Positions 4,411 to 64,000 are shown, counted from the first letter of the stretch. The stretch: DNA of 64,000 nt from an uncultured Bacilli bacterium (GCA_934097105.1 CAKONI010000001.1:74144-138143); one strand, 5' to 3'. Program-made: numbers and translations. Notes: generated by a model not told the origin, from the sequence alone.

Positions 4411-4435
4411 ATGTACCTCTTATTCTTTTTTATTT

Positions 4436-5779: not shown

Positions 5780-5811
5780 AGTTCCTCCTTTACATTATAG
5801 AAAAAAGAAGA

Positions 5812-27940: not shown

Positions 27941-27967
27941 TTTTTATTTTTATGGTATAATTTTCTA

Positions 27968-40894: not shown

Positions 40895-41197
40895 ATGATG
40901 GCAAGAGGAAAATCTAAATCAAAGAAAAAAAATTTTAAGAGAATTTTTTTTGTAACGTTGTTTTGCTTGGCAATAAATGGATATATTTTTTATTCTATAG
41001 GCTCTATATTTCAAGATGTTTATGTTATGAAACATGAGAAAGTGCAATTAGATAAAAAAATAGAAGATTTAAAAGAGGAAGAGGAAGTTTTGAAATCTGA
41101 AGTTAAAAAACTTAAAGATCCTGTGTATGTGGCTAAGTATGCTAGGGAAAAGTTTTTGTATTCTGGTGATAACGAATATATTATTAGAATGAAATAG
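40895..41197 (+). CDS. divIC: Septum formation initiator (DivIC/FtsB family)
   Basis: Basic N-terminus, a single TM helix, a coiled coil (QLDKKIEDLKEEEEVLKSEVKKLKD) and then PVYVAKYAREKF. Confidence 0.65.
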   Translation: MMARGKSKSKKKNFKRIFFVTLFCLAINGYIFYSIGSIFQDVYVMKHEKVQLDKKIEDLKEEEEVLKSEVKKLKDPVYVAKYAREKFLYSGDNEYIIRMK

Positions 41198-48970: not shown

Positions 48971-51253
48971 ATGTTTTCTAAATTTGATGAAGAAGCAAAG
49001 AAAGTACTTTTAAATATGCAGAAAGAGATGATTAGTTTGAAACATCCTTATATTGGTAGTGAACATTTACTTTTGTCTTTACTTAAGTATGGTAATAAAG
49101 ATTTTGTTGATAAGTTTTCTTCTTTTGGGGTTACTTATGATTCTTTTAAGGAAGAACTTATTTCGGTTGTGGGGGTTGGCAAGAGTTCTAATGAGTTTTA
49201 TTTGTATACTCCTCTTTTGCGTACTATTTTGGAGTCTGCCGGAATGGATAGTTCTGATAAGGGGAAAAAGTTTGTTGATACGGGAGATTTGTTTTTTTCT
49301 CTTTTTGAGGAGGGCGAAGGAGTTGCGATTAGAATACTTTTGGGCATGAATGTTGATGTTGATGCTTTGTATGATAGTTTTTGTGTTAGTAAAAAGAGTC
49401 GTAATGTTAAACTTATGGTTGAGTCTTTTGGTGTTAATTTGAATGATAAATGTAAACGTGGAGAAATTGATCCTGTTATTGGACGTGAAAAGGAAATAGC
49501 AAGGCTTATTCAAATTTTGTCTCGTAGGACTAAAAATAATCCTCTTCTTTTGGGAGAGGCTGGAGTTGGTAAGACTGCAATTGTTGAGGAACTTGCTAGA
49601 GTTATTAATTCTTCTTCTTTTTCTAAACTTTCTAATAAGAAACTTATTTCTGTTTCGATGGCTAGTTTAGTTGCGGGGACAAAATATCGTGGTGAATTTG
49701 AGGAAAGATTGGAAAAGATTATTCGTGAACTTGAAGAAAATGATGATGTTATCTTATTTATTGACGAAATTCACACTTTAGTGGGTGCAGGTGGTGCGGA
49801 GGGTGCAATTGATGCTTCTAATATACTTAAACCTGCTCTTGCTCGTGGTAAGATTAAAATTATTGGGGCTACTACTATTTCTGAGTATAAAGAGTTTATC
49901 GAAAATGATAAGGCGTTGTCGCGTAGATTTCAAACTATTTTGGTTGAAGAACCTGATGTTTCCGCAACTAAGGATATTTTGTTTAAGTTAAGACCTATTT
50001 ATGAGTCTTATCATAATGTTAAGATAAGTGATAAGGTTTTAAATGAAATCGTTACTTTGTCTAATAGATATATTTATGATAGAAAAATGCCTGATAAGGC
50101 TATTGATGTATTGGATGAGGTTTGTTCTAGGGTTTCTGTTTTGTCTTTTAAAAACAATGATATTATGGATATTAATGAGAGAATTGAGAAACTTAAGAGT
50201 TTAAAGAATGAATCTATTGTTAATAACAATTTTAATGATGCTTTTTTGTATAAGAAGTCTGAGATGATTTTGGAAGATAAGAAAAATAAATTGGAACTTA
50301 AAAATATTAATAATTCTTTGATTAAGGTTACTTCGAATGACGTATGTAAGGTTGTTGAAGAAAGATCAAAGATTCCTATTTATAGAAATTCTTTTAAGGT
50401 TTTGGATAATCTTAAAAAGTCCCTTTCTTCGGTAGTTTATGGACAGGATAAGGCTATTAATACTATTTGTGATGCTTTTAAGAAAAGATGTTTTTCTTCT
50501 TCTGAAAGTGTTAAACCTATGTCATTTTTGTTTTTGGGTTCTACTGGTGTTGGGAAGACGATGCTTGCTAAAGAATATGGTAAGGTTATTTATGGGGATA
50601 ATATTATTCGTGTTGATATGAGTGAGTTTAAGGAAGGGCATTCTATTAGTAAAATGATTGGTTCTCCTCCTGGATATGTTGGATATTCTGATAATAAGAA
50701 TGTTTTTGAACAAGTTAAGGATAATCCATATTCTCTTATTATTTTGGATGAGATTGAAAAGGGTAGTAGAGAGGTTATTAACTTATTTTTACAAATTTTG
50801 GATGAGGGGTATGCTAAAAATAGTAAGGGTGAAAAGATTAATTTTTTAAATACAACTATTATCATGACATCTAATTTGGGTTCTAACAAGAATAGTATTG
50901 GCTTTAATGGTACTATATCTTTTGAAGATGTTTATAATTTCTTTGGAATTGAGTTTGTTAATAGGATTAGTAGTGTAGTTGAGTTTAATAAGATTAGTGA
51001 TTTAGTTTGTGCTAAACTTGTTAGGAATAAACTTTCCTTTATAAGAAAATATTATAAGGAAAAAGGTGTTTTTTGTTCTTTTTCTAATAAACTTATTTCT
51101 GAAATTTTGAAGTTGTGTGATTATGAAAAGTATGGTGCTAGGAAAGTTAATTGTGTTATTGAGCAAAACTTGGAGACTGTTATTATTGATCGGATGCTTT
51201 GTGGTGATAGTAAAATTAGAATTGATAGTATTATTAAAAATATGGTTGTTTGA
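48971..51253 (+). CDS. clpC: ATP-dependent Clp protease ATP-binding subunit ClpC-like (class I AAA+)
   Basis: Clp_N repeats ([13 protein letters not shown]...[10 protein letters not shown]) and two AAA modules ([12 protein letters not shown]; [12 protein letters not shown]). I prefer the second ATG because GGGAGG abuts the first. Confidence 0.88.
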
Positions 51254-51309
51254 GAAAGGTTGTATTACTTTCTTTTTTTTGCTATAATATGGGAAAAGGA
51301 GTGCTTTAT

Positions 51310-52734
51310 ATGAAAAAAGTAAGAACTAGATTTGCTCCGAGTCCAACGGGGTATATGCATATTGGAAATTTGAGGACTGCAATTTTTGAATATCTTATTG
51401 CAAAGAAAAATAGGGGGGATTTTATTCTTAGAATAGAAGATACTGATCAAAATAGGGAAGTTGCTGGTGCGGTTGATTTTATTTATGATACTCTTTCTTT
51501 ATGTGGTTTTTCTATTGATGAAGGGCCTAATAATGAGGGTGAGTGTGGGCCATATGTTCAAAGTATGAGAAAAGATATATATATGGAGTATGCTTTAAAA
51601 CTTGTTGAAATGGGAAAGGCCTATTATTGTTTTTGTTCTGAGGATAGACTTAATGAACTTAGGGAGATTGCTAATCTTAATAAGATTCCTTTTATGTATG
51701 ATGGTCATTGTAAGAGTTTAAGTGATAAGGAAATTAAGGAAAGACTTGCTAGGGGAGATAAGTATGTTATTCGTCAATCTATGCCTAAAGAGGGTAAAAC
51801 TGTTGTTAATGATTTGATTTATGGCGAAGTTGTGATTGATAATAGTGTTTTAGAGGATCAAATTTTGATTAAGTCTGATGGTTTTCCTACGTATAATTTT
51901 GCGAATGTTATTGATGATCATTTAATGGATATTACACATGTTGTTAGAGGAAAGGAATATTTGGATCAGACTGCTAAATATAATTTATTATATGATGCAT
52001 TTGGTTGGGAAAAGCCTTGTTATATTCATGTTGCTATGGTTCTTGGGGAAGATGGCACTAAACTTAGCAAGAGAAATGGTGATGCTTCTTTTATGGATTT
52101 ATATAAAGATGGTTATTTGCCTGCGGCTATTGTTAATTATTTAGTTCTTCTTGGATGGAGTCCTAGTAGTAACAAGGAAATTTTTTCAATGGATGAGTTG
52201 ATTAATGAGTTCGATCCTTCTAGAATTGGTAAATCTGCAAGTAGTTATGATATTAAGAAACTTAATTGGGTTAATGCGCATTATATTAAGGGTCTTAGTG
52301 ATGATGATTATTGTAAGTTTGTTATTCCTTTTTTGGAAGAGGCTTATGATCTTAGTGATAAGAGTGAGGAATGGATTAGGCATTTAGCACTTATTTATAA
52401 AAATCATATTAGTTATGGAAAGGAAATTGTTTCTTTAGTTAAGTTGTTTTTTGAAGATGGTGCGAAGTTAGATGATGAATGCAAAAGTTTTATGGATGAA
52501 AATGATGTGTCTTCGGTTATTTCTTGTTTTAAAGAGGAAATTTCTAATATCGATGAGTGGAATGTTGAAAATATTTGTTTGGCTATTAATAATACTAAGG
52601 AGAAGACTTCTGCTTGTGGTAAGATGCTTTACATGCCAATTAGGATAAAGGTTTCTTATCAAATGCATGGTCCTGAACTTGGAGATACTATTTATCTTTT
52701 AGGTAAGGAAAAGGTTTTAGAACGTTTGGGGTGA
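51310..52734 (+). CDS. gltX: Glutamate--tRNA ligase
   Basis: The start is trimmed to MKKVRTRFAPSPTGYMHIGN (AAGGAG upstream), with KLSKRNG as the KMSKS motif. Confidence 0.96.
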   Translation: MKKVRTRFAPSPTGYMHIGNLRTAIFEYLIAKKNRGDFILRIEDTDQNREVAGAVDFIYDTLSLCGFSIDEGPNNEGECGPYVQSMRKDIYMEYALKLVEMGKAYYCFCSEDRLNELREIANLNKIPFMYDGHCKSLSDKEIKERLARGDKYVIRQSMPKEGKTVVNDLIYGEVVIDNSVLEDQILIKSDGFPTYNFANVIDDHLMDITHVVRGKEYLDQTAKYNLLYDAFGWEKPCYIHVAMVLGEDGTKLSKRNGDASFMDLYKDGYLPAAIVNYLVLLGWSPSSNKEIFSMDELINEFDPSRIGKSASSYDIKKLNWVNAHYIKGLSDDDYCKFVIPFLEEAYDLSDKSEEWIRHLALIYKNHISYGKEIVSLVKLFFEDGAKLDDECKSFMDENDVSSVISCFKEEISNIDEWNVENICLAINNTKEKTSACGKMLYMPIRIKVSYQMHGPELGDTIYLLGKEKVLERLG

Positions 52735-52738
52735 TTTA

Positions 52739-54127
52739 ATGAAATTATATAATACTCTTACTAGAAAAATAGATGATTTTTCTACATATGAGGATGGTAT
52801 TGTTAGGATGTATACTTGTGGTCCGACTGTGTATCATTATGCTCATATTGGTAATTTAAGGACTTATATTATGGAGGATGTTCTTGAGAAGTCTTTATCT
52901 TTTCTTGGGTATAGAGTTGAGCGCGCTATGAATATTACTGATGTTGGGCATCTTTCTAGTGATGGCGATACTGGTGATGATAAGATGGTGAAGGGCGCTA
53001 AAAGAGAAAATAAAACTGTTATGGATATTGCTAAGTTTTATACGGAGGCGTTTTTTAAGGACTGTGAACTGTTAAATATTAAAAAACCTGATATTGTTGT
53101 GCCTGCTACTAGTCTTATTGATGAGTATATTAAGATGATTTCAGTTTTACTTGAAAAGGGTTTTGCTTATAAATCTGGTGAGAATGTTTATTTTGATACT
53201 TCTAAACTTAAAGAATATTATGTTTTGACGAATCATTCTGATGATAGTTTACTTGTTGGGGTTCGTGATGATGTTGGTGAAGATAAAAATAAAAAAAATA
53301 AAACTGATTTTGTTTTGTGGTTTACTAAATCTAAGTTTGATAATCAAGAACTTAAATGGGATTCTCCTTGGGGTATTGGATATCCTGGGTGGCATATTGA
53401 GTGTTCTGCGATTTCGCTTAAGTATTTAGGAGAGCATTTGGATATTCATTGTGGTGGAGTTGATAATATTTTTCCTCATCATACTAATGAGATTGCACAG
53501 ACGGAGTCTTTCATTGGGCATGCTTGGTGCAGGTACTGGTTTCATGTTGAACATTTAAATGATGATACTGGTAAAATGAGTAAGAGTAAGGGTGATTTTT
53601 TGACTTTATCTTTGCTTATGGATAAGGGTTATAATCCTCTTGTTTATAGAATGTTTTGTTTATCTTCTCATTATAGAAAGCAACTTTTGTTCTCTTATGA
53701 TTCTCTTGATGGTTTTAGTAATGCTTATGAGAAATTAAAGAAGAGAGTTTTGAGTTTAACGGATGAGGGAGAGATTTCTAATACTGAGAAGTATATTAAT
53801 GCTTTTAAGGATAATATTAATAATGATCTTAATACTTCAATGATGCTTACTACTTTGTATGATTGTCTTAAGGCTGATGATTTAAGTGATGCTTCTAAGA
53901 AGTATTTAGTGGGATTATTTGACTCAGTTTTAGGTCTTGACTTATTAACAAAAGATGTTAAAAAGTCTTTGGTTGATGAGGAGTTTATTAATGAAAAGAT
54001 TGAGGAAAGACAAGTTTGTAAGGGAAATAAGGATTATTCTAAGGCTGATGAGATTCGTGATGAACTTCTTTCTATGGGAATTAGGCTTATAGATACTAAA
54101 GATGGGACAAAATATGAAATTTTATAG
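52739..54127 (+). CDS. cysS: Cysteine--tRNA ligase
   Basis: CGPTVYHYAHIGN, the zinc-ligand context HIECS and KMSKSKG. Confidence 0.97.
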   Translation: MKLYNTLTRKIDDFSTYEDGIVRMYTCGPTVYHYAHIGNLRTYIMEDVLEKSLSFLGYRVERAMNITDVGHLSSDGDTGDDKMVKGAKRENKTVMDIAKFYTEAFFKDCELLNIKKPDIVVPATSLIDEYIKMISVLLEKGFAYKSGENVYFDTSKLKEYYVLTNHSDDSLLVGVRDDVGEDKNKKNKTDFVLWFTKSKFDNQELKWDSPWGIGYPGWHIECSAISLKYLGEHLDIHCGGVDNIFPHHTNEIAQTESFIGHAWCRYWFHVEHLNDDTGKMSKSKGDFLTLSLLMDKGYNPLVYRMFCLSSHYRKQLLFSYDSLDGFSNAYEKLKKRVLSLTDEGEISNTEKYINAFKDNINNDLNTSMMLTTLYDCLKADDLSDASKKYLVGLFDSVLGLDLLTKDVKKSLVDEEFINEKIEERQVCKGNKDYSKADEIRDELLSMGIRLIDTKDGTKYEIL

Positions 54128-54135
54128 GAGGTATT

Positions 54136-54813
54136 ATGGATAGTATTATTTATTTATTGTTTTTTATATCTTTTGCGATTACTTTGATTGCACAAATTTT
54201 GGTTAGTGCTAGATATAGTAAGTATTCTAAAATTACGAATAGCAAAGGTTTGACTGGGTTTGATGTTGCTAAGAAGATTTTGGAAAAGAATGATTTAGGA
54301 GATATTTATGTAGTTGAAACTAAGGGTTATTTGTCTGATCATTATGATCCTGGGCATAATGTTATTAGACTTTCTCATGGGGTTTTTCATGGTGAAAGTT
54401 TGAGCGCTGCTGCTATTGCGGCTCATGAGGTAGGACATGCTATTCAGAAAAAACAGGGCAACTTTTTTATGAAAATTCGTAGTTTTATATTTCCTGTTGT
54501 TAATTTTTCTTCTAAGTTTGGTTATATTGCTATATTAATAGGACTTATTTTTGGGTATATGAGGTTATTTTATTTAGGAATTTTTATGCTTTTTGTTATT
54601 TTGTTTTTCCAACTTGTTACGCTTCCTGTTGAGTTTGACGCGTCTAGAAGGGCTATGGCTAATTTAGAAAAGTATAATATTCTTCTTGCTGATGAAAAAC
54701 GTGGCGCTAGAAAGGTTTTAGTGGCTGCGGCACTTACGTATGTTGCTAGTTTAGTTACTACTCTTCTTGAAATTTTTAGACTTCTTTTAGTTGTAATGGG
54801 TAATAGAGATTAA
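54136..54813 (+). CDS. Membrane zinc metallopeptidase, YugP family
   Basis: 225 aa with the HEVGHAIQ zinc motif and flanking TM helices. Confidence 0.75.
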   Translation: MDSIIYLLFFISFAITLIAQILVSARYSKYSKITNSKGLTGFDVAKKILEKNDLGDIYVVETKGYLSDHYDPGHNVIRLSHGVFHGESLSAAAIAAHEVGHAIQKKQGNFFMKIRSFIFPVVNFSSKFGYIAILIGLIFGYMRLFYLGIFMLFVILFFQLVTLPVEFDASRRAMANLEKYNILLADEKRGARKVLVAAALTYVASLVTTLLEIFRLLLVVMGNRD

Positions 54814-54815
54814 TT

Positions 54816-55169
54816 ATGCTGTTACAACTTTCTTTTTTGGGTGATGCGGTTTTTGAACTTATGGTGAGAGAATATGCTATTTCCTTGAATATTGTTAAAC
54901 TTAAGGATTTACAGAAGTTTACACTTGATTTTGTCACTGCTAAAAAACAGGCTTATTTTACTCAAATTCTTATACAAAATGGGTATTTAACTGGTGAAGA
55001 GGTAGATTTAATTAGACGTGGGCGTAATGTTAAAACAAGAAAAAGTCCTAAAAATTGTGATGTGATTACATATAAGTATGCGACTGCTTTTGAAATTTTG
55101 ATTGGTTTTTTATATAAAAATGATAGGGAAAGGCTTAATGAGATTTTTGATTTGATTAAAAAAATGTAA
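54816..55169 (+). CDS. mrnC: Mini-ribonuclease 3
   Basis: LSFLGDAVFELMVREY is the RNase III signature. The approximately 117-aa length and the position after cysS match Bacillus yazC. Confidence 0.8.
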   Translation: MLLQLSFLGDAVFELMVREYAISLNIVKLKDLQKFTLDFVTAKKQAYFTQILIQNGYLTGEEVDLIRRGRNVKTRKSPKNCDVITYKYATAFEILIGFLYKNDRERLNEIFDLIKKM

Positions 55170-55182
55170 AGGATGTAGTTTT

Positions 55183-55878
55183 ATGATTATATATGGTAAG
55201 AATAGTTGTTATGAATATTTAAAAAAAGGTTTAAAAGTGAAAAAATTATATTTGGACAGGAATTTTAGTGACAAAAAGATAATTTCCCTAATGGAAAATT
55301 TAAATATCAGGCCTTGTTTCTATACCAAATTTGAATTAGACCGACTTGCAAATGAAAATCATCAAGGTATAATTATAGATGCAGGAGATTATAGATATGC
55401 TGATCTTGATGATATAGTTAGTTCTGATAATGGATTTGTTGTGATTCTTGATCATATTACTGATCCTCATAATTTTGGGGCAATTATTAGAACTTGTGTT
55501 GCAGCGGGTGTTGATGGTATTATTATTCCTAAGGATAGAAGTGTTAGTGTTAATTCTACTGTTATGAAAACTAGTGTTGGAATGGCTCTTAATATTAAGA
55601 TATGTATGGTTACTAATATTAATCATGCTATTAGGTATTTAAAGGATAAGAATTACTGGATTTATGCTGCTGATATGAGTCATACTAAATATACGGATGT
55701 TAGTTATTCTGGTAATGTTGCACTCATTATTGGAAATGAGGGTAAAGGTGTTAGTGATCTTGTTATAAAATCTTCAGATTATGTTGTTTCTATTCCTCTT
55801 GCAGAAAATGTTGATAGTTTAAATGCTTCAGTGGCTGCAGGAATTTTGATTTATGAGGTGGTGAGGCAAAGAAATTAG
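55183..55878 (+). CDS. rlmB: 23S rRNA (guanosine-2'-O)-methyltransferase RlmB (SpoU/TrmH family)
   Basis: HQGIII...ILDHITDPHNFGAIIRT...LIIGNEGKGVS...IPL...SLNASVAAGILIYE. Confidence 0.88.
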   Translation: MIIYGKNSCYEYLKKGLKVKKLYLDRNFSDKKIISLMENLNIRPCFYTKFELDRLANENHQGIIIDAGDYRYADLDDIVSSDNGFVVILDHITDPHNFGAIIRTCVAAGVDGIIIPKDRSVSVNSTVMKTSVGMALNIKICMVTNINHAIRYLKDKNYWIYAADMSHTKYTDVSYSGNVALIIGNEGKGVSDLVIKSSDYVVSIPLAENVDSLNASVAAGILIYEVVRQRN

Positions 55879-55887
55879 GGAGGTTTT

Positions 55888-56454
55888 ATGGTTTATAATG
55901 ATTTTGAACTTGTTTATATGGTTGGAGAAAGTGAGGAGGTACTTTCTTTACTTATAAGTAAGTATGAGCCTTTGTTTAGGAAAATTGCTAATTCTTTTGT
56001 AGATAAGTATCCATTAAAGGGACTTAATGTTGAGGATATTGTGCAACAGTGCAGAATTATTATTTGTAAGGCTGTTGATACTTTTAGTGATTCTAATGAT
56101 GTTATATTTTATACTTATTTACTTGCTTGTTTAAAAAGAGGATTATCGAGTTATTGTAGGACTTTGATTAAAAGGCCTGATACAGTTTTTTATATGGGTG
56201 ATGAGAATTACGAGAATTCTAAGGAGTTTGTTAGTTCTTGTGATTCATTTGAGTTATGTAGTGATTTTGAATTTTTTCTTGCTCTAATTACTTTTAAGCA
56301 TAATCTTTCTTTTTTGGATTCGTGTATTTTTGAACTTCGTTATAATGGTTTTTCTTACAAGGATATTGCATCTTTGTTGGATACTAATGTAAAAAAGGTT
56401 GACAATTCTTTATTTTTTACTAGAAAAAAACTGGAAAAGTATTTTTCATTTTAA
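55888..56454 (+). CDS. Sigma-70 family factor, SigH-like by position (divergent)
   Basis: 188 aa with a region 2-like segment (DFELVYMV...LLISKYEPLFRKIANSF) and a region 4-like HTH (FSYKDIASLLDTNVKKVDNSLFFTRKKL). Its position after mrnC-rlmB matches sigH in Bacillus. Confidence 0.6.
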   Translation: MVYNDFELVYMVGESEEVLSLLISKYEPLFRKIANSFVDKYPLKGLNVEDIVQQCRIIICKAVDTFSDSNDVIFYTYLLACLKRGLSSYCRTLIKRPDTVFYMGDENYENSKEFVSSCDSFELCSDFEFFLALITFKHNLSFLDSCIFELRYNGFSYKDIASLLDTNVKKVDNSLFFTRKKLEKYFSF

Positions 56455-56493
56455 TTTTTTGTGTTATACTTGTTATGATAGGAAGGGTAGACT

Positions 56494-57123
56494 ATGGATA
56501 ATACGATTTCACTTAGACAATTTATTGATAGAAGAGATGAATTTGATAATATTAGGATCAATACTTTTTGTCGTCTAATGAAGAAGGTTTCTTCGGCAAT
56601 TGATAAAGAGGAAAATAATATTATAAGAATTAATTTAGATGAAATTCGTATTAATGTTCTTACTGGTGATATAATATTTCCTAGTAATTTATTAAATGAT
56701 GGGGGAAATTCTTTTAAAACAGTTGCAGGTTTTAATACTGGTGTTGGTTTGATGGCCGATAGAAAGAGTTCTTTGGAGCACAAAAGAATATCATTTGCAC
56801 TTATGTTTTTAGGATGGTATTGTAATGATGATAGGAGTGCTATTATTAGTGATATTAATGTTTTAGAGAATTTTGATTACTATATGAGTAAGGTACCTAG
56901 TTGGTTACAGGACTATTTTATTGCTGTTTTTAAGAGAATGGACTATAATATTTCTTTTTCTGATTATTATGATAAAAACTTTACTGAGGATGTTAAAAAT
57001 AATATAAAAAACTCTTTTAAAGAGTATAATTTACCTGATGAACAACTTAAAAGTATTATGAAAGTTGTTATGAAAAAGGCAGATAATATGGTGTTTAGGG
57101 GTGAGAATAATGGACAGATTTAA
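56494..57123 (+). CDS. Hypothetical cytoplasmic protein
   Basis: 209-aa ORF with host-like T/G-rich codon usage and no motif I recognise. Confidence 0.5.
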   Translation: MDNTISLRQFIDRRDEFDNIRINTFCRLMKKVSSAIDKEENNIIRINLDEIRINVLTGDIIFPSNLLNDGGNSFKTVAGFNTGVGLMADRKSSLEHKRISFALMFLGWYCNDDRSAIISDINVLENFDYYMSKVPSWLQDYFIAVFKRMDYNISFSDYYDKNFTEDVKNNIKNSFKEYNLPDEQLKSIMKVVMKKADNMVFRGENNGQI

Positions 57124-57547
57124 TGATAGATGGGAAGAAGATATGAAAAAGTCTATTCCAAGGAGTACTGATTATGTTAAGGCAAAACTTGCAACGGAAC
57201 TTGAACTTTACAGAGTGGGTAATTCTGTAATTAAAGATAGTGTGAATAAAATTGAAAATGCGGGAACTGATAATCAAAATAATGCTTTTTCAAATGATAA
57301 GAGATTAGTTAGAACTATGAATCCAAATATGAATGGTAATAACAATTCTTTTAATAATAATTCTTTTGATACTTCTAATATTTATGATAGCAATCCTTTA
57401 TCTGGTTTTGGTGGTGTTAGTAACGATGAGGCAAGTGGAAAGAATTTTTATGGAAGTGGTTACTCTACAGCTTTAATTTTATCTTTTACGGCAGCACTTG
57501 TTTTCTTAGTTTTTCTAGTTTGTTTACTTTTTGCTAATTATTTTTAG
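57110..57547 (+). CDS. Hypothetical tail-anchored membrane protein with N-rich disordered middle
   Basis: The ATG at 57110 follows GGGGTGAG and overlaps the upstream gene. It has an N-terminal helical segment, an N/S-rich linker and a single C-terminal TM (ALILSFTAALVFLVFLVCLLFANYF). Confidence 0.5.
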   Translation: MDRFNDRWEEDMKKSIPRSTDYVKAKLATELELYRVGNSVIKDSVNKIENAGTDNQNNAFSNDKRLVRTMNPNMNGNNNSFNNNSFDTSNIYDSNPLSGFGGVSNDEASGKNFYGSGYSTALILSFTAALVFLVFLVCLLFANYF

Positions 57548-57628
57548 AGATTATGTCTCTTTTTTTGTGTTTTTTCTTTAATTTTTTCTTATTTAATGTT
57601 AAAATATTATCTTGAGGAGATGATTTTT

Positions 57629-60130
57629 ATGTCATTATTTAGAAAAGTATTTGATTTTGATGAAAAAGAACTTAGAAGATTTGAAAAAATTGCTTGTCAA
57701 ATTGATGCGCTTGATGAAGAATATTCTAAACTTTCTGATGAAGAACTTAAAAATAAGACTGGTTTATTTAAGAAAAGAATTGCTGAGGGTGAAACTTTAG
57801 ATGATATAGTTGTTGAGGCTTTTGCTACCGCTAGAGAGGCATGTTTTAGGGTTATTGGAGAAAAACCTTATCATGTACAACTTTTAGGTGGTTTGGCTCT
57901 TCATTTCGGTAATATTTCTGAAATGAAAACTGGTGAGGGAAAGACACTTACTTCTGTTCTTCCTGCTTATTTGAATGCACTTGATGGTAGAGGTGTTCAT
58001 ATTGTTACTGTAAATGAATATCTTGCTGAACGTGATTCTAAATGGATGGGTCAAATTCATAAATTTTTGGGTCTTACTGTAGGACTTAATCGTCGTGATT
58101 TAAGCGCTAAGGAAAAAAGAGAACAATATGATTGTGATATTTTATATTCCACTAATAACGAAATAGGATTTGATTATCTTCGTGATAATATGGCTATTAA
58201 AAAAGAGGATCGCGTGCAACAACGTGGACTTAATTATGCAATTGTCGATGAAGTTGATTCTATTTTGATTGATGAGGCGCGTACACCTTTAATTATTTCT
58301 GGTGGTTATTTAGAAAATAAAAATTTGTATAACCAAGCAGATAGTTTTGCAAAGACTCTTAAGGAAAATGATGGATATGTGTATGATGCTAAACTTAAGA
58401 GGACTAATCTTGATGAAAGTGGTTTTAAAAAGGCTGAAAAATACTTTAAGGTTGATAATTTATATGATGTTAATAATTCTACTTTAGTACATTTTATAAA
58501 TCAGGCTTTACATGCTAACTTTTCTATGAAAAGAGATTTTGATTATGTTGTTAATGATGGAAAAATTGTAATTGTTGACCAATTTACTGGTCGTTTGATG
58601 CCAGGTCGTGCATTTAGTGATGGTTTGCATCAAGCAATTGAAGCTAAAGAAGGTGTTGAGATTCAACAAGAAACTAGAACTTTGGCTACCATTACTTTCC
58701 AAAATTTATTTAGAATGTATAAGAAACTTTCTGGTATGACTGGTACTGCTAAAACTGAGGAAGAAGAATTTAGAGAAATTTACAATATGTACGTTATATG
58801 TATTCCTACGAATAAACCTGTTATTCGTGTTGATATGCCAGATATTATTTATGCAAGTAAAAAGTCTAAATATAAGGCAATAATTAATGAAATTGCTGAG
58901 AGACATAAGAAAGGGCAACCTGTTCTTGTGGGTACTATTGCTATTGAAACTAGTGAGGAAATTAGTTCTTTATTGAAGAAAAAGGGTATACCTCATGAAG
59001 TTTTAAATGCTAAGAATCATGCTCGTGAGGCTGAAATTATTTCTAAGGCTGGTGAAAAAGGTTCTGTTACGATTGCTACTAATATGGCTGGTCGTGGTAC
59101 TGATATTAAACTTGGTGAAGGTGTTAAAGAACTTGGTGGTTTATGTGTAATTGGTACTGAAAGACATGAGTCTCGTCGTATTGATAACCAATTGCGTGGA
59201 CGTTCTGGACGTCAAGGTGATCCTGGCTATACTCAATTTTATATTGCTATGGATGATGAACTTATGATTCGTTTTGGTTCTGAAAAGATAAAGAATCTTT
59301 TACAAAGTACTGGAATTGATGAGGGCATGGCTATTAGAAGTAAAATGTTTACTAGGTCTGTTGCTTCTGCACAAAAAAGAGTTGAAGGTAATAACTACGA
59401 TACTCGTAAGACAATTTTGCAATATGATGATGTTATGAATAGACAAAGAGAACTTATTTATGGTAAGAGAAACCTTATTTTAGATAGTGAATCAATTCAT
59501 GAAGAAATTCTTAAGGGAATGTATAATCATGTTGCGGATTTAATTGAATCTCATGCTGGGGAAGATGAAAAGTTAGAAAAAGAAGATATTAAGGATATTT
59601 GTGAATATGTTAATTCTAGTTTGCTTAGAAAAAATATTGATGAAGAATTCTTTAAGGATAAATCTATTGATAATATTATTGATGGTATTACTGAGCTTAT
59701 TGTTTCTGAATATGAGGAAAAAATTAAAGAAATACCTGATGAAGTTGCTAATGAATTTGAAAAAGTTATTGCACTTAATGTTATTGATAAGTACTGGATG
59801 GAACAAATTAATACTATGGCTCATTTAAAAGAGGGAATTTTCTTAAGAAGTTATGCTCAAGATAATCCTCAAAGGGCTTATACTGAAGAAGGTTTTGATT
59901 TGTTTGATACTATGATGGAAAATATTGATAAGTATACTACTTTGTACCTTCTTAATGCTGAAATTAGGCAAAATATTGAAAGAAAGCAAGTTGCTAAGAG
60001 CCAATCTACTAATGAATCTACTGAAAAAGGTAAGGGGCATACTATTAAAAAGGGTAAAAAAGTTGGTAGAAATGATCTTTGTCCTTGTGGAAGTGGGAAA
60101 AAATATAAAAATTGTTGTGGTAAAAATTAA
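57629..60130 (+). CDS. secA: Preprotein translocase ATPase SecA
   Basis: The start is trimmed to MSLFRKVFD (GAGGAG upstream). It has DEAD motor motifs (MKTGEGKTL, DEVDSILIDEARTPLIISG) and a C-terminal zinc finger CPCGSGKKYKNCCG. Confidence 0.98.
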   Translation: MSLFRKVFDFDEKELRRFEKIACQIDALDEEYSKLSDEELKNKTGLFKKRIAEGETLDDIVVEAFATAREACFRVIGEKPYHVQLLGGLALHFGNISEMKTGEGKTLTSVLPAYLNALDGRGVHIVTVNEYLAERDSKWMGQIHKFLGLTVGLNRRDLSAKEKREQYDCDILYSTNNEIGFDYLRDNMAIKKEDRVQQRGLNYAIVDEVDSILIDEARTPLIISGGYLENKNLYNQADSFAKTLKENDGYVYDAKLKRTNLDESGFKKAEKYFKVDNLYDVNNSTLVHFINQALHANFSMKRDFDYVVNDGKIVIVDQFTGRLMPGRAFSDGLHQAIEAKEGVEIQQETRTLATITFQNLFRMYKKLSGMTGTAKTEEEEFREIYNMYVICIPTNKPVIRVDMPDIIYASKKSKYKAIINEIAERHKKGQPVLVGTIAIETSEEISSLLKKKGIPHEVLNAKNHAREAEIISKAGEKGSVTIATNMAGRGTDIKLGEGVKELGGLCVIGTERHESRRIDNQLRGRSGRQGDPGYTQFYIAMDDELMIRFGSEKIKNLLQSTGIDEGMAIRSKMFTRSVASAQKRVEGNNYDTRKTILQYDDVMNRQRELIYGKRNLILDSESIHEEILKGMYNHVADLIESHAGEDEKLEKEDIKDICEYVNSSLLRKNIDEEFFKDKSIDNIIDGITELIVSEYEEKIKEIPDEVANEFEKVIALNVIDKYWMEQINTMAHLKEGIFLRSYAQDNPQRAYTEEGFDLFDTMMENIDKYTTLYLLNAEIRQNIERKQVAKSQSTNESTEKGKGHTIKKGKKVGRNDLCPCGSGKKYKNCCGKN

Positions 60131-60209
60131 TGAATTTTTAGAAAGTAAAGTTTGTGAAAATTATCAATTGTTGATGAAATGTTTATGATTTACTTACAAA
60201 ATATTGAAA

Positions 60210-60246
60210 TAAAGATGTCACTTAGAAATAATTTGTTGACATCTTT
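60210..60246 (+). terminator. Hairpin downstream of secA (weak terminator candidate)
   Basis: Perfect 10-bp stem AAAGATGTCA/TGACATCTTT with a 16-nt loop and a short T4 tail. Confidence 0.4.
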
Positions 60247-60269
60247 TAAATTTAAAAAAGAGGTAAATA

Positions 60270-60929
60270 ATGGAAGGAAAAAATAATATAGTAATATATC
60301 AATTAGATGATGGTAAAGCAAAAAATAGATGTAAAATTTGAGGATGAAACAGTATAGCTATTACAGTAACAGATGGCTGAATTTTTCTCTACTTCAAGAA
60401 CTAACATAATTGAACATATAAATAATATATATGAAGAAGAATTAGATAAAAATTCAATATGTCAAAATTTCCGACAAGTTCGAAAAGAAGGGAATAGAAT
60501 GGTTAATAGAGAAATTCCATATTACAATTTAGATATGATTATATCTTTAGGATATAGAATAAAATTTAAAGTTGCTACTAATTTTAGAAGATGGGTGACG
60601 GAAAGATTAAAGGAGTATATGATTAAATGGTTTGCTATGGATGATGAAAGATTTAAAGACAATGGTGGGGTAATTATTGGAAATAATTGCTTATTAGAGT
60701 TAAAAATATAAGAACATCTGAAAAAGTATTATATAGACAAGTTTTTGTTTAGTACTGGACAAAAGTTATTTGTTGGTTCGAGTACAGTTAGTCATAATAA
60801 AATGATTGAAAGGGCAAAAGATGAATATAAGAAACATCAAGTAAAAACAATGAGTCCGGTGAAAAAGAATATTTAGAAATATTAAAAATAATGAGCAATA
60901 AAATTGATGATAAAACAAAGAATGAATAG
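60270..60929 (+). pseudogene. RhuM-family (virulence-associated) gene remnant: frameshifts, in-frame stops and an internal deletion
   Basis: Fragments are MEGKNNIVIYQLDDGKAK / KIDVKFEDETV*LLQ*QMAEFFSTSRTNIIEHINNIYEEELDK...FRQVRKEGNRMVNREIPYYNLDMIISLGYRIKF...RLKEYMIKWFAMDDERFKDNGG, then a jump to the C-terminal ...HNKMIERAKDEYKKHQ...SPV/EKEYLEILK. A TAG sits where homologs have Trp. Confidence 0.75.
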
Positions 60930-60989
60930 AGTGTATCATATAGGTGTACTTTATTTTTATATGTAAATCACAGATAATGAGAGTGATAA

Positions 60990-61150
60990 AATGATTAGTA
61001 TAAGAAAAAGAGACAATGTATATTGATTTTGTTTGAAGTAGGAGAAATGGAAAATGATTAACAAAAAATGGTTTTAAGACAACGAATGAAGCATATACTG
61101 TATTGATGAATTCATTAATGGCGTAACAAATGTAGAATGTACTAAGGAGG
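60990..61150 (+). pseudogene. Possible remnant of a tyrosine-integrase N-terminus (arm-binding region)
   Basis: Broken frames read MISIRKRDNVY.. and ..NGFKTTNEAYTVLMNSLMA, resembling the KRGN-x-Y...GFKTKKEA start of phage/ICE integrases. There are multiple stops. The evidence is weak. Confidence 0.3.
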
Positions 61151-61209
61151 GTGTAATAGTGGTATATGAAAAGTGCAGAGAATCATAAAGATAAATTTTT
61201 TTGTGAAAT

Positions 61210-61492
61210 TTGCAAAATCATAAAAAAAGTGTTATAATTTAGACATATTTTAAATCAGTGATTTGGAGAAGTAAATATTTATGAAATTTATAGAAAGCAG
61301 CTGGTTGATGGAAAGTTGTAATGGATGAATATTGAATGGACCAAAGAGAGTTTTTCAGAAATTAATTAAAGTATGAAAAATCGGGAGATTCTACCCGTTA
61401 TCAAGTGAACATATATGATGGTATATGAAATGAAACTATTATTGGGTGGCACAAGATTCTTGTCTTAATTTTTAGGACTGGAATCTTTTTTA
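61210..61492 (+). promoter_or_regulatory. Promoter plus T-box leader (Trp specifier) controlling trpS
   Basis: TTGCAA, 17-nt spacer, TATAAT (61210-61238). Candidate specifier GAA-UGG-A with UGG at 61337-61339, AGAGAG at about 61345, T-box TTGGGTGGCACAAG at 61442-61455, and terminator AGATTC...GAATC with T6 (61454-61491). Confidence 0.75.
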
Positions 61493-61593
61493 TTTATAAG
61501 GAGATGGTAGTATGAAAAAGAATGTGAAACGATGGTGCAAGTTATATTAATCATTGATTTAAAATATAAAATTATAAGAAAGAGGGAAAAAAT

Positions 61594-62586
61594 ATGAAAA
61601 TAATGATTACAGGTGTAAGACCTACAGGTAGTATAACTTTAGCAAATTATATTGGAGGTATAAGGGGATTTATAGAGCAACAACATAAATATAACTCTTT
61701 AATATTTATTGCTGATATTCATGGGTTAACAACTTATATTAATCCAAAGAAAATAAGAAACAATATTTTAGATATTACAGCAATGTATATGGCTTGTGGA
61801 ATAGATACTAATAATACAGCATTATTTATGCAAAGTGATGTATTGGAACATTGCAATTTAGGATTTTTAATGTCATTTCAATGTAGTGTTGGAGAATTAT
61901 CTAGAATGACACAATTTAAATCAAAAAGGCAACAACTAGGAAAAAGTGAAAAGGATATGGGATTATTTATATATCCAACTTTAATGGCAGCGGATATATT
62001 ATTATATGATGCTGAAATAGTACCTGTTGGTGCAGATCAAAGACAACACATTGAAAAAACTAGAGATTTTGGAGAAAGATTTAATAATATATATGGTAAT
62101 ATTTTTAAATTACCAGAATATCAGATACCAAAAATAGGTGCAAAAATAATGAATTTACAAGATCCAAGTATTAAAATGAGTAAGTCTGCTCCAAAGGATG
62201 ATAAAGGAACAATCTTTATGTTAGATGATATAGAAATAACAAGAAAGAAGATAATGTCTGCTTGTACAGATAGTGAAGGTAAAGTTTATTATGATGAAGA
62301 TAATAAACCAGGGATATCTAATCTAATATCTTTAGTTTGCGTAGTTAATAATATGACAATAGAAGAAGCAAATCAAAAATATAGAGATTATAATTACAAA
62401 GATTTCAAAATTGAAGTTGCTGATAGTGTTTGTAATTTTATTAAAAATATTCAAAACAAGTTTTATAAATATAGAAATGATGAACAATACTTAAAAGAAA
62501 TCTTAACTAATGGGGCTAACAAGGCTAGAATACTTGCTTCTAAAAAAATGGCTATTGTTAAAGAAAAAGTTGGCTTGAAAATATAA
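61594..62586 (+). CDS. trpS: Tryptophan--tRNA ligase
   Basis: 330 aa with GVRPTGSITLANYIGG (TIGN-type HIGH region), GADQRQHIE and KMSKS. Codon usage is A-ending, unlike its neighbours. Confidence 0.95.
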   Translation: MKIMITGVRPTGSITLANYIGGIRGFIEQQHKYNSLIFIADIHGLTTYINPKKIRNNILDITAMYMACGIDTNNTALFMQSDVLEHCNLGFLMSFQCSVGELSRMTQFKSKRQQLGKSEKDMGLFIYPTLMAADILLYDAEIVPVGADQRQHIEKTRDFGERFNNIYGNIFKLPEYQIPKIGAKIMNLQDPSIKMSKSAPKDDKGTIFMLDDIEITRKKIMSACTDSEGKVYYDEDNKPGISNLISLVCVVNNMTIEEANQKYRDYNYKDFKIEVADSVCNFIKNIQNKFYKYRNDEQYLKEILTNGANKARILASKKMAIVKEKVGLKI

Positions 62587-62733
62587 TTAAAGTGTAATTA
62601 ACTTGTAAAGTTGCCTGTTATAATAATTTTATAACTCATAAATTCTTACTTTTTTGTTATAAAGATGTTATAATTTGTATGAGAGATAATATGAAGAGAA
62701 GAGAACTAAAAAAGGAAAGAAAAAAATAGAATT

Positions 62734-62970
62734 TTGAGGTTGAAATTAACAGAGGGTAATATAGATGATGTTTATAAATCTTTACCTAAGATAGTAAAAG
62801 TGTGTAATAAGAAATATAAAATAGAACTTTTTTATAATAATGATTTTGTGCTTACTAAATGTTTTTTTACTAATAGGCAAAAAGATATATTGCAATTTAG
62901 TTATTGGATTCCGAAAGAACTTATTATTGAAAAATTAGTTAAATCTTCTAAAAGATTTTTAAAAGTATGA
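62734..62970 (+). CDS. Hypothetical protein (78 aa), possibly 5'-truncated by a frameshift
   Basis: ORF with a TTG start and no RBS. An ATG with a basic N-terminus (62691) lies in another frame, separated by an A7 run. Confidence 0.3.
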   Translation: MRLKLTEGNIDDVYKSLPKIVKVCNKKYKIELFYNNDFVLTKCFFTNRQKDILQFSYWIPKELIIEKLVKSSKRFLKV

Positions 62971-63096
62971 TAAGTATATGGCTTATTTGTAAAAATAATA
63001 TTTAAGTGTTTTGAAAATAGTAAACAATTAGATGATATTGAGATTAAAAATTGATATAATGTTTATGCTAAAAGTTAATAATTTAGTAAAATACTA

Positions 63097-63286
63097 TTGA
63101 CATATTAACGAACAAGTCATAAAATAATGTCTGTAAGCAATTTTATATTGTTTACAAGAGTTTGTGGTGTTATTATTTTGAATATCAATGTTTGAGTTTA
63201 TTTACTTTATTTTTGATATTCATCTATCTATGAATTTGTTCATAGGTGCAACTGAGCATGTATTTATTATGTGTTCAGTTTTTTTG
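63097..63286 (+). ncRNA. Orphan promoter-to-terminator unit (about 155 nt): candidate sRNA or 22-aa hydrophobic peptide
   Basis: TTGACA (63097-63102), 17-nt spacer, TAAAAT (63120-63125). A 9-bp terminator stem (63251-63259 / 63271-63279) is followed by T8. An internal ATG at 63127 encodes MSVSNFILFTRVCGVIILNINV with no RBS. Confidence 0.3.
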
Positions 63287-63339
63287 TTTGTATTTTTTAG
63301 AAAATAGTGTATAATATTTTTAGAATTGGAGGATTTTGT

Positions 63340-64000
63340 ATGGAAATTTGTGATGTTAAAAAAAGATATAATGAACTTTTAGAAAAAATTAATGTTTTAT
63401 GGAGGTCACTTTGAAGTTGATTCTAAATTGAAAGAAATAGAATCTTTGGAAGTTATTTCTAATGAACCATCTTTTTGGAATGATAGTGATAATGCTAAGG
63501 AAGTTATGCTTAAGATTAGTAATCTTAAGTCTATTACTGATAATATTGTTGCTTTAAAAAAGGATATTCTTGATAATTTGGATATTTTGTCTTTACTTAT
63601 GGATGAAATGGATGAGGATCTTTTTTCTTCTGTTTGTGATGATGTTTCTGTTTTTGAAGAGAGAGTTTCTAAACTTGAACTGGAACTTTTGTTTTCTGGA
63701 GAATATGATCATTCTAATTGTATACTTGAAATTCATTCTGGTGCTGGTGGTACTGAGGCTTGTGATTGGGCTTCTATGCTTTTTAGAATGTATACTAGAT
63801 GGTGTGAAAGTAAAAACTATAAGGTAGAGGTGCTTGATTATTTGGATGGCGATGAGGCTGGACTTAAGAGTGCTAGTATTCTGGTGAAGGGTTTTAATGC
63901 TTATGGTCATTTAAAGTGTGAAAAGGGTGTTCATAGATTGGTTCGTTTGTCTCCTTTTGATTCTAATAATAAGAGGCATACTTCTTTTGCTTCGGTTGAT
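63340..64000 (+). CDS. prfB: Peptide chain release factor 2, requires +1 programmed frameshift at 63409-63414; 3' end off window
   Basis: Frame 0 reads MEICDVKKRYNELLEKINVLWRSL then TGA. Frame +1 from 63413 reads EVDSKLKEIESLEVISNEPSFWND...EIHSGAGGTEACDWASMLFRMY...VHRLVRLSPFDSNNKRHTSFASVD. Confidence 0.93.
63401..63414 (+). promoter_or_regulatory. prfB +1 frameshift cassette
   Basis: Internal SD-like GGAGG (63401-63405), a 3-nt spacer TCA, and the slippery CTT followed by the in-frame TGA (63409-63414). The architecture is the same as E. coli AGGGGG-TAT-CTT-TGA. Confidence 0.9.

Follow-up and report, generated by a model that had tools for sequence, protein, structure and literature searches.

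The question raised by this locus is why a gene for tryptophanyl-tRNA synthetase (TrpRS), trpS, lies between secA and prfB in a gut bacterium, an uncultured member of the RF39 group with extreme strand bias, and whether it is the native gene, a replacement for it, or an addition to it. The 64,000-nucleotide stretch of DNA that was analyzed is referred to here as the window. The favored explanation, considered probable on balance, is an accessory, strain-variable insert at a hotspot 3′ of secA, in which an eroded element carries a trpS module that likely supplies a second, inducible TrpRS.

Extent and composition of the insert

Insert limits were set by blastn and by alignment to two contigs of the same species, L037 and L038, both of which align with the window as far as 60253 and then from 62583 onward. 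The stretches at 60131-60253 and 62583-63300 therefore lie outside the strain-specific insert (Table 1), contrary to the original prediction of a foreign island running from 60131 to 63300. The first stretch holds the secA terminator and the second a small open reading frame (ORF), a promoter/terminator unit, and the prfB promoter; both are common to strains in which the site is empty, and the first is host DNA. The island had also been said to split secA from prfB, and trpS was indeed inserted between them, but the two genes were not adjacent beforehand, as the spacing in the empty site is already 1.35 kb.

Table 1. Features of the secA-prfB region, in window coordinates
Feature	Coordinates	Strand	Basis or remarks
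secA	57596..60130	+	Pfam SecA domains
secA terminator hairpin AAGATGTCA...TGACATCTTTT	60211..60250	+	By inspection; host DNA
Inserted segment	60254..62582	+	2329 bp, strain-specific, in place of 55 bp of empty site
rhuM-family pseudogene	60322..60843	+	Three pieces, two frames, large internal deletion
Tyrosine integrase N-terminal remnant	60955..61140	+	tblastn
Module promoter	61210..61238	+	TTGCAA, 17 nt, TGxTATAAT; consensus scan
Trp T-box leader	61249..61470	+	Rfam RF00230
T-box terminator hairpin plus U-run	61453..61492	+	RNAalifold
Leader ORF MKKNVKRWCKLY*	61512..61550	+	AAGGAG upstream; Trp codon 61533-61535
trpS, tryptophanyl-tRNA synthetase, 330 aa, intact	61594..62586	+	TIGR00233, PF00579
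78-aa ORF	62734..62970	+	In-frame internal-deletion derivative of 213-aa Cys-rich ORF; outside insert
Native promoter, ~160-nt structured RNA, and terminator	63097..63292	+	Upstream of prfB
prfB 5′ part	63340..64000	+	By inspection

Among the 45 host genes on the plus strand that code for 100 aa or more, T makes up 0.40-0.68 of third codon positions (T3) and A 0.16-0.37 (A3), with a mean A3-T3 of -0.365 (sd 0.084, maximum -0.03). The extreme T-rich bias is absent from trpS and the DNA 5′ of it: the third positions of trpS have A3 0.44 and T3 0.42, an A3-T3 of +0.02 (z = 4.6 against the 45 host genes), and the same measure deviates by z = 4.9 in the rhuM fragment and z = 3.3 in the 78-aa ORF. 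In codon usage, trpS lies at a distance of 0.248 from the host pool, versus 0.115 ± 0.035 for host genes (z = 3.8), and ATA, ACA, and CCA occur 67, 30, and 21 times per 1000 codons in trpS versus 15, 6, and 4 in the host. AT skew is positive over ∼59.3-62.9 kb, strongly so from ∼60.0 kb. Codon statistics thus separate trpS from the host genes, and both the A-rich shift and the unusual codon choice that had been predicted are confirmed, the latter for these three codons; that the inserted DNA is foreign to the host genome is supported.

The flanks are native. The end of secA (last 35-45 nt) codes for the SEC-C motif CGSGKKYKxCCGK at 60086-60120, and hairpins homologous to the secA terminator are present at other RF39 loci. 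The small ORF was predicted as an island gene, possibly frameshifted; it is present, but it lies outside the insert and arose by in-frame loss of about 353 bp from a 213-aa Cys-rich ORF that is intact in L037, L038, and a third same-species contig, L094, and that sits between secA and prfB in the empty-site strains. The orphan promoter-terminator unit likewise exists but is not part of the island: it occurs in L037, L038, and L094, strains keeping the native spacer, and is 97-98% identical among same-species strains. Its promoter (TTGACA-17-TAAAAT) scores 11/12 and its terminator, at 63250-63280 plus a T-run, is the sole terminator-like site found in the region, both by consensus scan; the structured RNA has a folding z-score of -6.9. 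Beyond it, prfB has the programmed +1 frameshift site CTT TGA at 63409-63414, after GGAGG, and the full gene on contig L001 codes for PCRF and RF-1 domains.

Remains of a mobile element

The predicted remnant of an integrative element, with a decayed rhuM gene and a scrap of integrase, was recovered in the 5′ part of the insert. With the intact RhuM proteins of L016 and L039 as tblastn queries, rhuM pieces were located at 60322-60654, 60675-60743, and 60775-60843; the RhuM profile PF13310 matches in one frame at positions 1-70 of 252 only, the rest being frameshifted or deleted. The integrase remnant matches residues 3-61 of L019 orf173 (tblastn, 43% identity, E = 2e-6) and residues 8-30 of the L013 integrase, which has Phage_integrase and SAM-like domains.

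Two observations at the borders count against the favored explanation. The insert starts 3 nt past the secA terminator hairpin, not within the secA 3′ end, and the search for att-like direct repeats at the island borders gave only chance-level AT-rich matches. No second SEC-C-coding repeat was found in the window, the one copy being the secA 3′ end itself. Elements with an intact tyrosine-integrase gene and flanking direct repeats occur in relatives L011, L016, L017, L019, L089, and L095; the window holds an integrase scrap of ∼60 codons and no direct repeats at the borders.

Strain variation at the site

Three states of the site were seen within the species. The site is empty in L037 and L038, whose SecA is 100% identical and whose flanks are 97.2-97.6% identical to the window; in L095 an intact integrase element of another kind occupies the 3′ end of secA; and the site holds the island in the window and in L094. 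In three sister species (SecA 88%, 85%, and, as far as the contig reaches, 83% identical), the site has other cargo, which in one of them is a threonyl-tRNA synthetase island at the secA 3′ end. The nearest relatives, namely same-species L037 and L038 and the three sister species, thus lack a trpS between secA and prfB. The secA-trpS-prfB order is not a single accident, since it is common in distant RF39 lineages (L020, L021, L064, and L078); this recurrence identifies the site as a recurrent integration hotspot.

L094 is an independent assembly from another sample, with the same island and the same two junctions, and its flanks are 98.97% and its module 98.9-99.3% identical to the window. The apparently truncated TrpRS of L094 was traced to a scaffold gap (a run of N) and is not a pseudogene. 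L094 bears on whether a metagenome assembler joined a trpS module of some other RF39 species into the contig. In favor of such a join, co-occurring RF39 species share the conserved module, and the right junction coincides with the end of conservation. The left junction, however, falls in non-conserved DNA, ∼970 bp away from the conserved block; both junctions recur in L094, with module and flanks alike ∼1% different from the window; and a further contig carries a protein identical to the window TrpRS. An assembly artefact is therefore given next to no credence.

The trpS module

The sole intact part of the insert is a unit of promoter, T-box, leader ORF, and trpS; the predicted promoter, T-box, and trpS were each identified, by consensus scan, RF00230, and TIGR00233, respectively. 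The TrpRS is a full-length match to the equivalog model (308 bits, cut-off 177) and aligns end-to-end with Geobacillus stearothermophilus TrpRS over residues 1-328 at 45% identity (tblastn). As predicted, it is the only trpS within the 64 kb. Of the catalytic residues, KMSKS, D132, M129, H43, and Q147 are kept, while TLAN replaces the TIGN motif and R replaces Q9; substitutions Q9R, G17A, K148R, and F5I are family-wide. Indolmycin contacts H43, D132, and Q147 of TrpRS (bioRxiv 10.64898/2026.03.23.713518), and these residues are unchanged here. Between the two island strains, trpS has 7 synonymous and 2 non-synonymous differences, which indicates purifying selection.

The module promoter scores 10/12 with an extended -10, and its position is kept across 18 family members. 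The T-box scores 77.2 bits (E = 3.7e-16) over the full model, 1-219, which is below the RF00230 gathering score of 93 and counts against the favored explanation; its homolog in L008 scores 95.2 bits. The Trp specifier UGG is at 61337-61339, and GAA-UGG (61334-61339) is invariant in 18 homologs. The bulge reads UGGC, within the GGUGGC of the T-box sequence, and is complementary to the tRNA 3′ end; its C would pair with the tRNA-Trp discriminator, G73. The terminator has 12 pairs over 14 sequences, with compensatory changes in 2 of them (UA to CG in 5). No tRNA gene was found within the 64-kb window.

A leader ORF of 8-17 codons with a Shine-Dalgarno sequence, an invariant K-R-W core, and 1-3 Trp codons is present in 23/23 family loci, among which it varies at synonymous sites, and it was not found in the outgroup L027. 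Between its stop and the following start codon are 25-45 nt. The idea that an RNA switch connects the leader ORF with the start of trpS was considered and dropped: no conserved RNA structure joining the ORF to the trpS ribosome-binding site was found, and one weak AU-rich pairing, of UAAUCAUUG with CAAUGAUUA, was folded in L010 and can be read in the window. A Trp-sensing role for the ORF is conjectural for that reason.

As read from the sequence, uncharged tRNA-Trp would pair with the UGG specifier and UGGC bulge and switch the T-box terminator to read-through, upon which the leader ORF and trpS would be transcribed and the TrpRS would charge tRNA-Trp. The leader Trp codon may serve as a second, ribosome-based gauge of the Trp-tRNA supply.

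Probable movement of the module among RF39 species

Across RF39 species with SecA identities of only 63-85%, the 1.37-kb module keeps an identity of 84-99%. Its limits are sharp (61205/61228 to 62573/62591 in the window), and secA DNA is ∼70% identical between the same loci. Between L010 and L015, SecA has 69% amino acid identity and a synonymous-codon identity of 0.54, and trpS 98% and 0.98; between L011 and L016, the values are 77% and 0.60 for SecA and 99% and 1.00 for trpS. TrpRS similarity is thus decoupled from SecA similarity across loci. Substitutions found solely in the window copy of the module number 52, among them 8 A>T, 6 T>A, 9 T>C, and 3 C>T; they show no T bias, which argues for a short residence in the host genome.

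Near-identical tracts between loci start at the secA 3′ repeat. SEC-C-coding repeats, in 2-5 copies 3′ of secA, occur in L011, L012, L015-L017, L019, L039-L041, L051, L052, L054, L055, L064, L087, and L089; they vary at synonymous sites and bound successive small tyrosine-integrase elements. Integrases flank trpS at many of the relatives' loci, where the module usually adjoins secA in arrays of small elements. Such arrays apparently gather at the secA 3′ end, which codes for the SEC-C zinc motif and seems to act as a repeated attachment site; we know of no described use of this 3′ end as an integration target. Family members 77-80% identical lie between a large serine recombinase and a MobV relaxase: L044-L049 have the recombinase, the relaxase, and then the cargo gene, and in L044 and L045 a TnpV gene follows a second serine recombinase downstream of trpS. 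In L022, trpB-trpS lies downstream of the leader. Judging from these relatives, the module probably passes from one RF39 species to another as cargo beside the 3′ end of secA, within tyrosine-integrase arrays bounded by SEC-C repeats, and elsewhere on elements with a serine recombinase and MobV relaxase. An origin of the TrpRS in phages or plasmids was dropped, as IMG/VR, INPHARED, and PLSDB held no close relative and all matches were below 60% identity.

Vertical inheritance, with secA-trpS-prfB ancestral in RF39 and deleted in the empty-site strains, would fit the frequency of secA-trpS(-prfB) in other lineages (L010-L021, L064, and L078) and the homology of the secA hairpin before their T-box promoter to the hairpin before the insert. 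It is nevertheless very unlikely, in that TrpRS is 86-93% identical to those lineages versus 63-70% for SecA, the module is unameliorated where the 45 other plus-strand genes are all T3-biased, and the sister species have no trpS at the site. The empty site also has 55 bp that are missing from the window and is therefore not a simple deletion product.

Second enzyme or replacement

Since same-species strains and sister species live without a trpS at this site, the inserted trpS is probably an addition to a trpS elsewhere in the genome and not the sole copy, and the word "auxiliary" has the absence of the island from close relatives as its basis. Selection may maintain such a second TrpRS for its benefit at times when the resident enzyme fails to keep tRNA-Trp charged. 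The term is not intrinsic to the module, which may be the only trpS in RF39 species that have it beside secA.

The insert may instead be a xenologous replacement, in which the native gene was lost after acquisition and the inserted trpS is the sub-lineage's only TrpRS. This is regarded as possible, if rather improbable. RF39 genomes are small and prone to shed redundant genes, trpS is under purifying selection between carriers whose adjoining rhuM/integrase debris has diverged by ∼6%, and no native host trpS was found among the 44 loci of a JGI metagenome scan, none of which has the host T3 of ∼0.6. Against this, acquisition was recent (∼1% divergence between carriers, no amelioration), and same-species strains 97% identical in the flanks must encode trpS elsewhere. 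That searches turned up no second trpS of this genome or species counts against the extra-copy reading. The own-genome search covered the 64 kb window plus 10 kb of the 185 kb contig, and from such a limited part of the genome the failure to locate a native trpS is not evidence of absence. Abundant TrpRS family members were rejected as the native gene, their contexts being mobile elements rather than host-like genomes, and an amino-acid-composition heuristic gave no discrimination.

A further suggestion, which is unlikely, is that the module is a transferable resistance determinant against a gut-made TrpRS inhibitor or tryptophan analog. The family-wide active-site changes (Q9R, TIGN to TLAN, and K148R) would make the TrpRS insensitive, and the double sensor would restrict trpS expression to times when the resident TrpRS is blocked. 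The near-identical copies across RF39 and on serine-recombinase/MobV elements of other gut contigs would then be accounted for. If the enzyme is insensitive to TrpRS inhibitors, gut communities would already harbor a mobile resistance gene, which would bear on plans to develop such inhibitors as drugs.

Relation to known systems

Horizontal transfer and duplication of aminoacyl-tRNA synthetase (aaRS) genes are well known, and the island by itself is therefore ordinary. Three features go further: a complete trpS module, regulatory and coding parts together, moves as a unit of its own among gut bacteria that are uncultured and genome-reduced; a Trp T-box is paired with a conserved Trp-codon leader ORF; and the secA 3′ end is an apparent attachment site for element arrays. 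Duplication of aaRS genes is frequent, with 25,913 cases in 26,837 genomes (PMC4787780), and Bacillus thrZ and tyrZ are extra aaRS genes that a T-box silences until the main enzyme can no longer keep its tRNA charged (Putzer 1992, cited in PMC4787780). These are fixed chromosomal paralogs, whereas the window trpS is strain-variable and nearly identical across species. In Streptomyces, a second trpS beside the housekeeping one (S. coelicolor trpRS1, S. griseus SGR_3809) is induced through a Trp-codon leader when Trp-tRNA charging fails (PMC6804068; Kitabatake 2002 and Vecchione & Sello 2010, as listed in PMC4787780). The window trpS shares the Trp-codon leader, its status as second copy being that of a candidate, and differs in lying in a horizontally moving module; the Streptomyces genes lie on the chromosome, are controlled by ribosome-mediated attenuation instead of a T-box, and have proven indolmycin resistance.

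To our knowledge, the B. subtilis anti-TRAP operon is the only case described previously in which a Trp T-box is paired with a conserved leader ORF containing Trp codons. In that operon, rtpA, the T-box is followed by a short Trp-codon leader ORF, and transcription and translation can thus both respond to uncharged tRNA-Trp (PMC4027176 and its references 11 and 12). The window module has the same pairing, but its downstream gene is trpS (trpB-trpS in L022) rather than anti-TRAP, its leader stop does not abut the ribosome-binding site as in rtpA, and its leader, known here from sequence alone, has the core K-R-W(W/C).

The mupA/ileS2 genes are mobile aaRS cargo beside a resident enzyme, as members of the window TrpRS family are aaRS cargo on mobile elements; mupA is plasmid-borne with a proven mupirocin phenotype, whereas PLSDB, INPHARED, and IMG/VR hold no plasmid, phage, or viral copy of the TrpRS family. 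A trpS of Enterococcus faecalis labeled as plasmid-borne was dropped as a precedent, its neighbors being of chromosomal type (spxA, mecA, and pepF). Integrative elements are known to enter the 3′ ends of housekeeping genes, bring a replacement 3′ end, and form ICE/IME/CIME accretion arrays, which the secA 3′-end repeats bounding successive tyrosine-integrase elements in relatives resemble; the window island differs in having no secA repeats and in its place after the terminator.

The mobilizable transposons Tn4451 and Tn4453 have a large serine recombinase, TnpX, a Mob relaxase, TnpZ, and the cargo catP. L044-L049 are alike in combining serine recombinase, MobV relaxase, and cargo, with TnpV in L044/L045, and the trpS module occupies the cargo slot of integrative/mobilizable elements as resistance genes do in Tn4451-type elements. 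Their cargo is T-box-trpS rather than catP, and they are relatives, not the window's own context; their recombinases have at most 34% identity, over part of the protein, to known plasmid-borne ones.

The trpS islet between secA and prfB

The interval between secA (57596-60130) and prfB (from 63340) had been predicted to hold a foreign island at 60131-63300, splitting the two genes and carrying the window's only trpS. The observation in this original prediction is real, although its boundaries required correction, and its interpretation was partly right. Junction alignment with two same-species strains with an empty site (L037 and L038, identified through SecA homologues and 100% identical in SecA) confines the insert to 60254-62582, with a 97% match over 50001-60253 that resumes at 62583. 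The insert places 2329 bp where the empty site has 55 bp, starts 3 nt past the hairpin that terminates secA, and runs to the stop codon of trpS, and no target duplication was found at its junctions by alignment with the empty site.

In both empty-site strains, the secA-prfB interval holds only a 213-aa Cys-rich ORF (L037:10789-11430), which is intermediate in composition (third-codon-position fractions A3 0.37, T3 0.48) and has no match in Pfam or NCBIfam. The small ORF at 62734-62970, previously thought to be possibly frameshifted, does exist, but it is an in-frame internal deletion of this 213-aa ORF. Likewise, the supposed orphan promoter-terminator unit at 63097-63292 is present but is native DNA, 97-98% identical in L037, L038, and L094, the three same-species contigs that keep the native secA-prfB spacer. 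It lies immediately before the prfB promoter and comprises a near-consensus promoter followed by a ∼160-nt RNA with four hairpins and an intrinsic terminator at its end. This RNA is much more stably folded than shuffled controls (z = -6.9), has no Rfam match, is not conserved in the 88% sister species, and is a candidate for a small RNA or a leader of prfB.

The same island occurs in L094, from a different sample, where the flanks are 98.97% and the trpS module 98.9-99.3% identical to the window; because module and flank identities are alike, the island was acquired once, in an ancestor of both carriers. Between the two carriers, trpS has seven synonymous and two non-synonymous differences, and the rhuM/integrase debris is ∼6% different. 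An apparent truncation of trpS in L094 was rejected, as it reflects a run of N. A third state is seen in the same-species contig L095 (GCA_030525225.1), which has an intact tyrosine integrase and other cargo directly past secA and whose homology to the window stops 6 nt before the secA stop. Sister species with 88% and 85% SecA identity have other compositionally foreign cargo here and no trpS, and in a species with 83% SecA identity the contig ends ∼0.7 kb past secA, with a single ORF there.

Contents and composition

The predicted parts, including rhuM, an integrase scrap, and a promoter/T-box/trpS unit, were recovered with Pfam, NCBIfam, and Rfam, and trpS is the sole such gene within the 64-kb window. 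The T-box scores below the Rfam gathering score of 93, the homologous copy in contig L008 scores above it (95.2 bits), and the bulge reads UGGC. The encoded TrpRS and the G. stearothermophilus enzyme align over their full length. Read from sequence, the unit is an intact TrpRS gene, predicted to be regulated by a T-box with a Trp specifier.

Features of the islet and of the trpS module within it
Feature	Position	Strand	Evidence
rhuM-family fragment (ORF)	60373-60711	+	RhuM profile positions 1-70 of 252 only
Further rhuM pieces	60675-60743 (other frame), 60775-60843 (past large deletion)	+	Comparison with intact RhuM of related loci
Integrase scrap	60955-61140	+	Matches N-terminus of tyrosine integrases adjoining trpS in related loci
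Module promoter	61210-61238	+	TTGCAA-17-TGxTATAAT
T-box leader	61249-61470	+	Rfam, 77.2 bits, E = 3.7e-16, full model
T-box specifier UGG	61337-61339	+	Invariant in 18 homologues
T-box terminator	61453-61492	+	Compensatory changes support hairpin
Leader ORF	61512-61550	+	Strong Shine-Dalgarno sequence; MKKNVKRWCKLY
trpS	61594-62586	+	TIGR00233 full-length equivalog, 308 bits vs cut-off 177

The compositional claim also held, as trpS departs from the T-rich third-position bias of the host (A3 0.44, T3 0.42, A3-T3 +0.02, against a host mean of -0.365 ± 0.084 for 45 genes, z = 4.6). Its codon-usage distance to the host pool is 0.248, compared with 0.115 ± 0.035 for host genes, and ATA, ACA, and CCA codons are 4-5 times as frequent as in host genes. 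The rhuM fragment (z = 4.9) and the small ORF at 62734-62970 (78 aa, z = 3.3) are likewise outliers. Among the 52 substitutions found only in the window copy of the module, there is no excess towards T, and this copy has therefore been only briefly under the host mutational bias.

Mobility of the trpS module

The closest TrpRS proteins (86-93% identity) all come from RF39-type MAGs, namely 'Mycoplasma sp. CAG:877', Candidatus Onthousia, and 'uncultured Bacilli/Tenericutes', whose SecA proteins are only 63-70% identical to that of the window. DNA similarity forms a sharply bounded block, from 61205/61228 to 62573/62591 in the window, which coincides exactly with the promoter, T-box, leader ORF, and trpS (∼1.37 kb) and is 84-99% identical between loci where secA is ∼70% identical. 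Between contigs L010 and L015, SecA is 69% identical in amino acids with a saturated synonymous-codon identity of 0.54, whereas the corresponding trpS values are 98% and 0.98; between L011 and L016, they are 77% and 0.60 for SecA and 99% and 1.00 for trpS. These contrasts show recent interspecies transfer, not slow evolution.

In most RF39 loci the module lies directly past secA, and prfB then follows in several of them (L020, L021, L064, and L078). Dozens of contigs have other family members, 77-80% identical. Some of these are cargo flanked by a large serine recombinase and a MobV relaxase, with a TnpV gene in the adjacent element of L044/L045, and others have IS elements as neighbours. Known plasmids, phages, and viral contigs yielded no copy. 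In a variant seen in L022 (8465-10993) and also in L086 and L092, the T-box/leader ORF is followed first by trpB (tryptophan synthase beta, TIGR00263, 584 bits) and then by trpS. This T-box-trpB-trpS operon suggests that a genome-reduced lineage salvages indole.

Repeat arrays at the secA 3′ end

In RF39 loci (L011, L012, L015, L016, L017, L019, L039-L041, L051, L052, L054, L055, L064, L087, and L089), the final 35-45 nt of secA recur downstream of the gene as two to five direct repeats, which encode the SEC-C motif CGSGKKYKxCCGK and a stop codon, with synonymous differences between copies. One small element, in many cases with a tyrosine integrase, ends at each repeat, and the near-identical tracts of L010/L015 and of L011/L016 start at such a repeat. 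The same arrays are present in L039-L041, which are sister species of the host, and in RF39 the 3′ end of secA appears to serve as an attachment site that is reiterated.

In one of these sister species (L040:10490-17368, SecA 85% identical), two elements bounded by the repeats follow secA. The first encodes a ThrRS that is short at its N-terminus (511 aa, TIGR00418, 522 bits) together with a GNAT acetyltransferase, and the second encodes an ABC exporter. All of this cargo is compositionally foreign and resembles a self-resistance set, and the ThrRS is a second case of aaRS cargo at the secA hotspot.

Possible functions of the inserted trpS

A native host trpS was not found in the contexts of abundant family members or in a JGI metagenome scan (44 loci), which would fit replacement of the native gene by the inserted one, a less likely reading. 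Other members of the species and genus do without a trpS at this place and must therefore have a native one elsewhere, and acquisition was recent; for these reasons we infer that the inserted trpS is an additional copy.

Resistance to a TrpRS inhibitor is a speculative role for trpS here. Changes relative to canonical TrpRS are found family-wide (Q9R, TIGN to TLAN, K148R, and F5I), and H43, D132, and Q147, reported as indolmycin contacts (bioRxiv 10.64898/2026.03.23.713518), are unchanged in the window TrpRS. Streptomyces has auxiliary TrpRS genes that confer resistance (PMC6804068), and duplicated aaRS genes are generally common (PMC4787780). The position of the gene as cargo on mobilisable elements is suggestive of a resistance role and proves nothing. 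The island is of an ordinary kind, a hotspot islet with an accessory aaRS gene. Its moderate interest comes from the discrete mobile T-box/leader/trpS module, from the spread of that module among RF39 species and to mobilisable elements, and from the attachment arrays at the 3′ end of secA.

A Trp-codon leader ORF

The short ORF between the T-box terminator and trpS was not among the originally predicted parts. It is present in 23 of 23 family loci, with 8-17 codons, one to three Trp codons, synonymous variation, and an invariant K-R-W core, which extends to K-R-W(W/C). It is kept in L022, where trpB is inserted before trpS, and is absent from the nearest outgroup, L027. A search for conserved RNA structure that would account for its action found none, and the ORF may give a second reading of Trp-tRNA, through the ribosome. 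The combination of a Trp T-box and a leader peptide with Trp codons resembles the B. subtilis anti-TRAP operon, in which transcription and translation both respond to uncharged tRNA-Trp (PMC4027176).

Strand composition of the host genome

The window lies within an ENA metagenome contig of 185 kb and has the gene order of a Firmicute, dnaA-dnaN-recF-gyrBA near 8 kb and then gltX-cysS-...-sigH-secA-prfB-secE-nusG-rplKAJL-rpoB. The +1 frameshift site usual for prfB is present, so the host reads TGA as stop. Strand asymmetry is extreme, with T3 ∼0.6 and C3 ∼0.02 in leading-strand genes; plus-strand genes of at least 100 aa have T3 ∼0.55-0.68 and A3 ∼0.16-0.30, one small gene excepted, and five minus-strand genes at 608-7346 have A3 ∼0.64. 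Because the bias switches at ∼7.4-8.1 kb, adjoining dnaA (8155, plus strand), the replication origin is probably near this point. Most other RF39 loci examined have ordinary composition (A3 ∼0.45, T3 ∼0.40), and the extreme bias is therefore specific to the host lineage.

Outside the island, only one plus-strand gene comes near island composition, the DivIC-family gene at 40895-41197 (A3 0.37, T3 0.40), which is the least T-biased host gene. A second T-box, at 27965-28151, exceeds the gathering score with 95 bits and precedes a methionyl-tRNA synthetase gene (28198-29706) with host-like composition.
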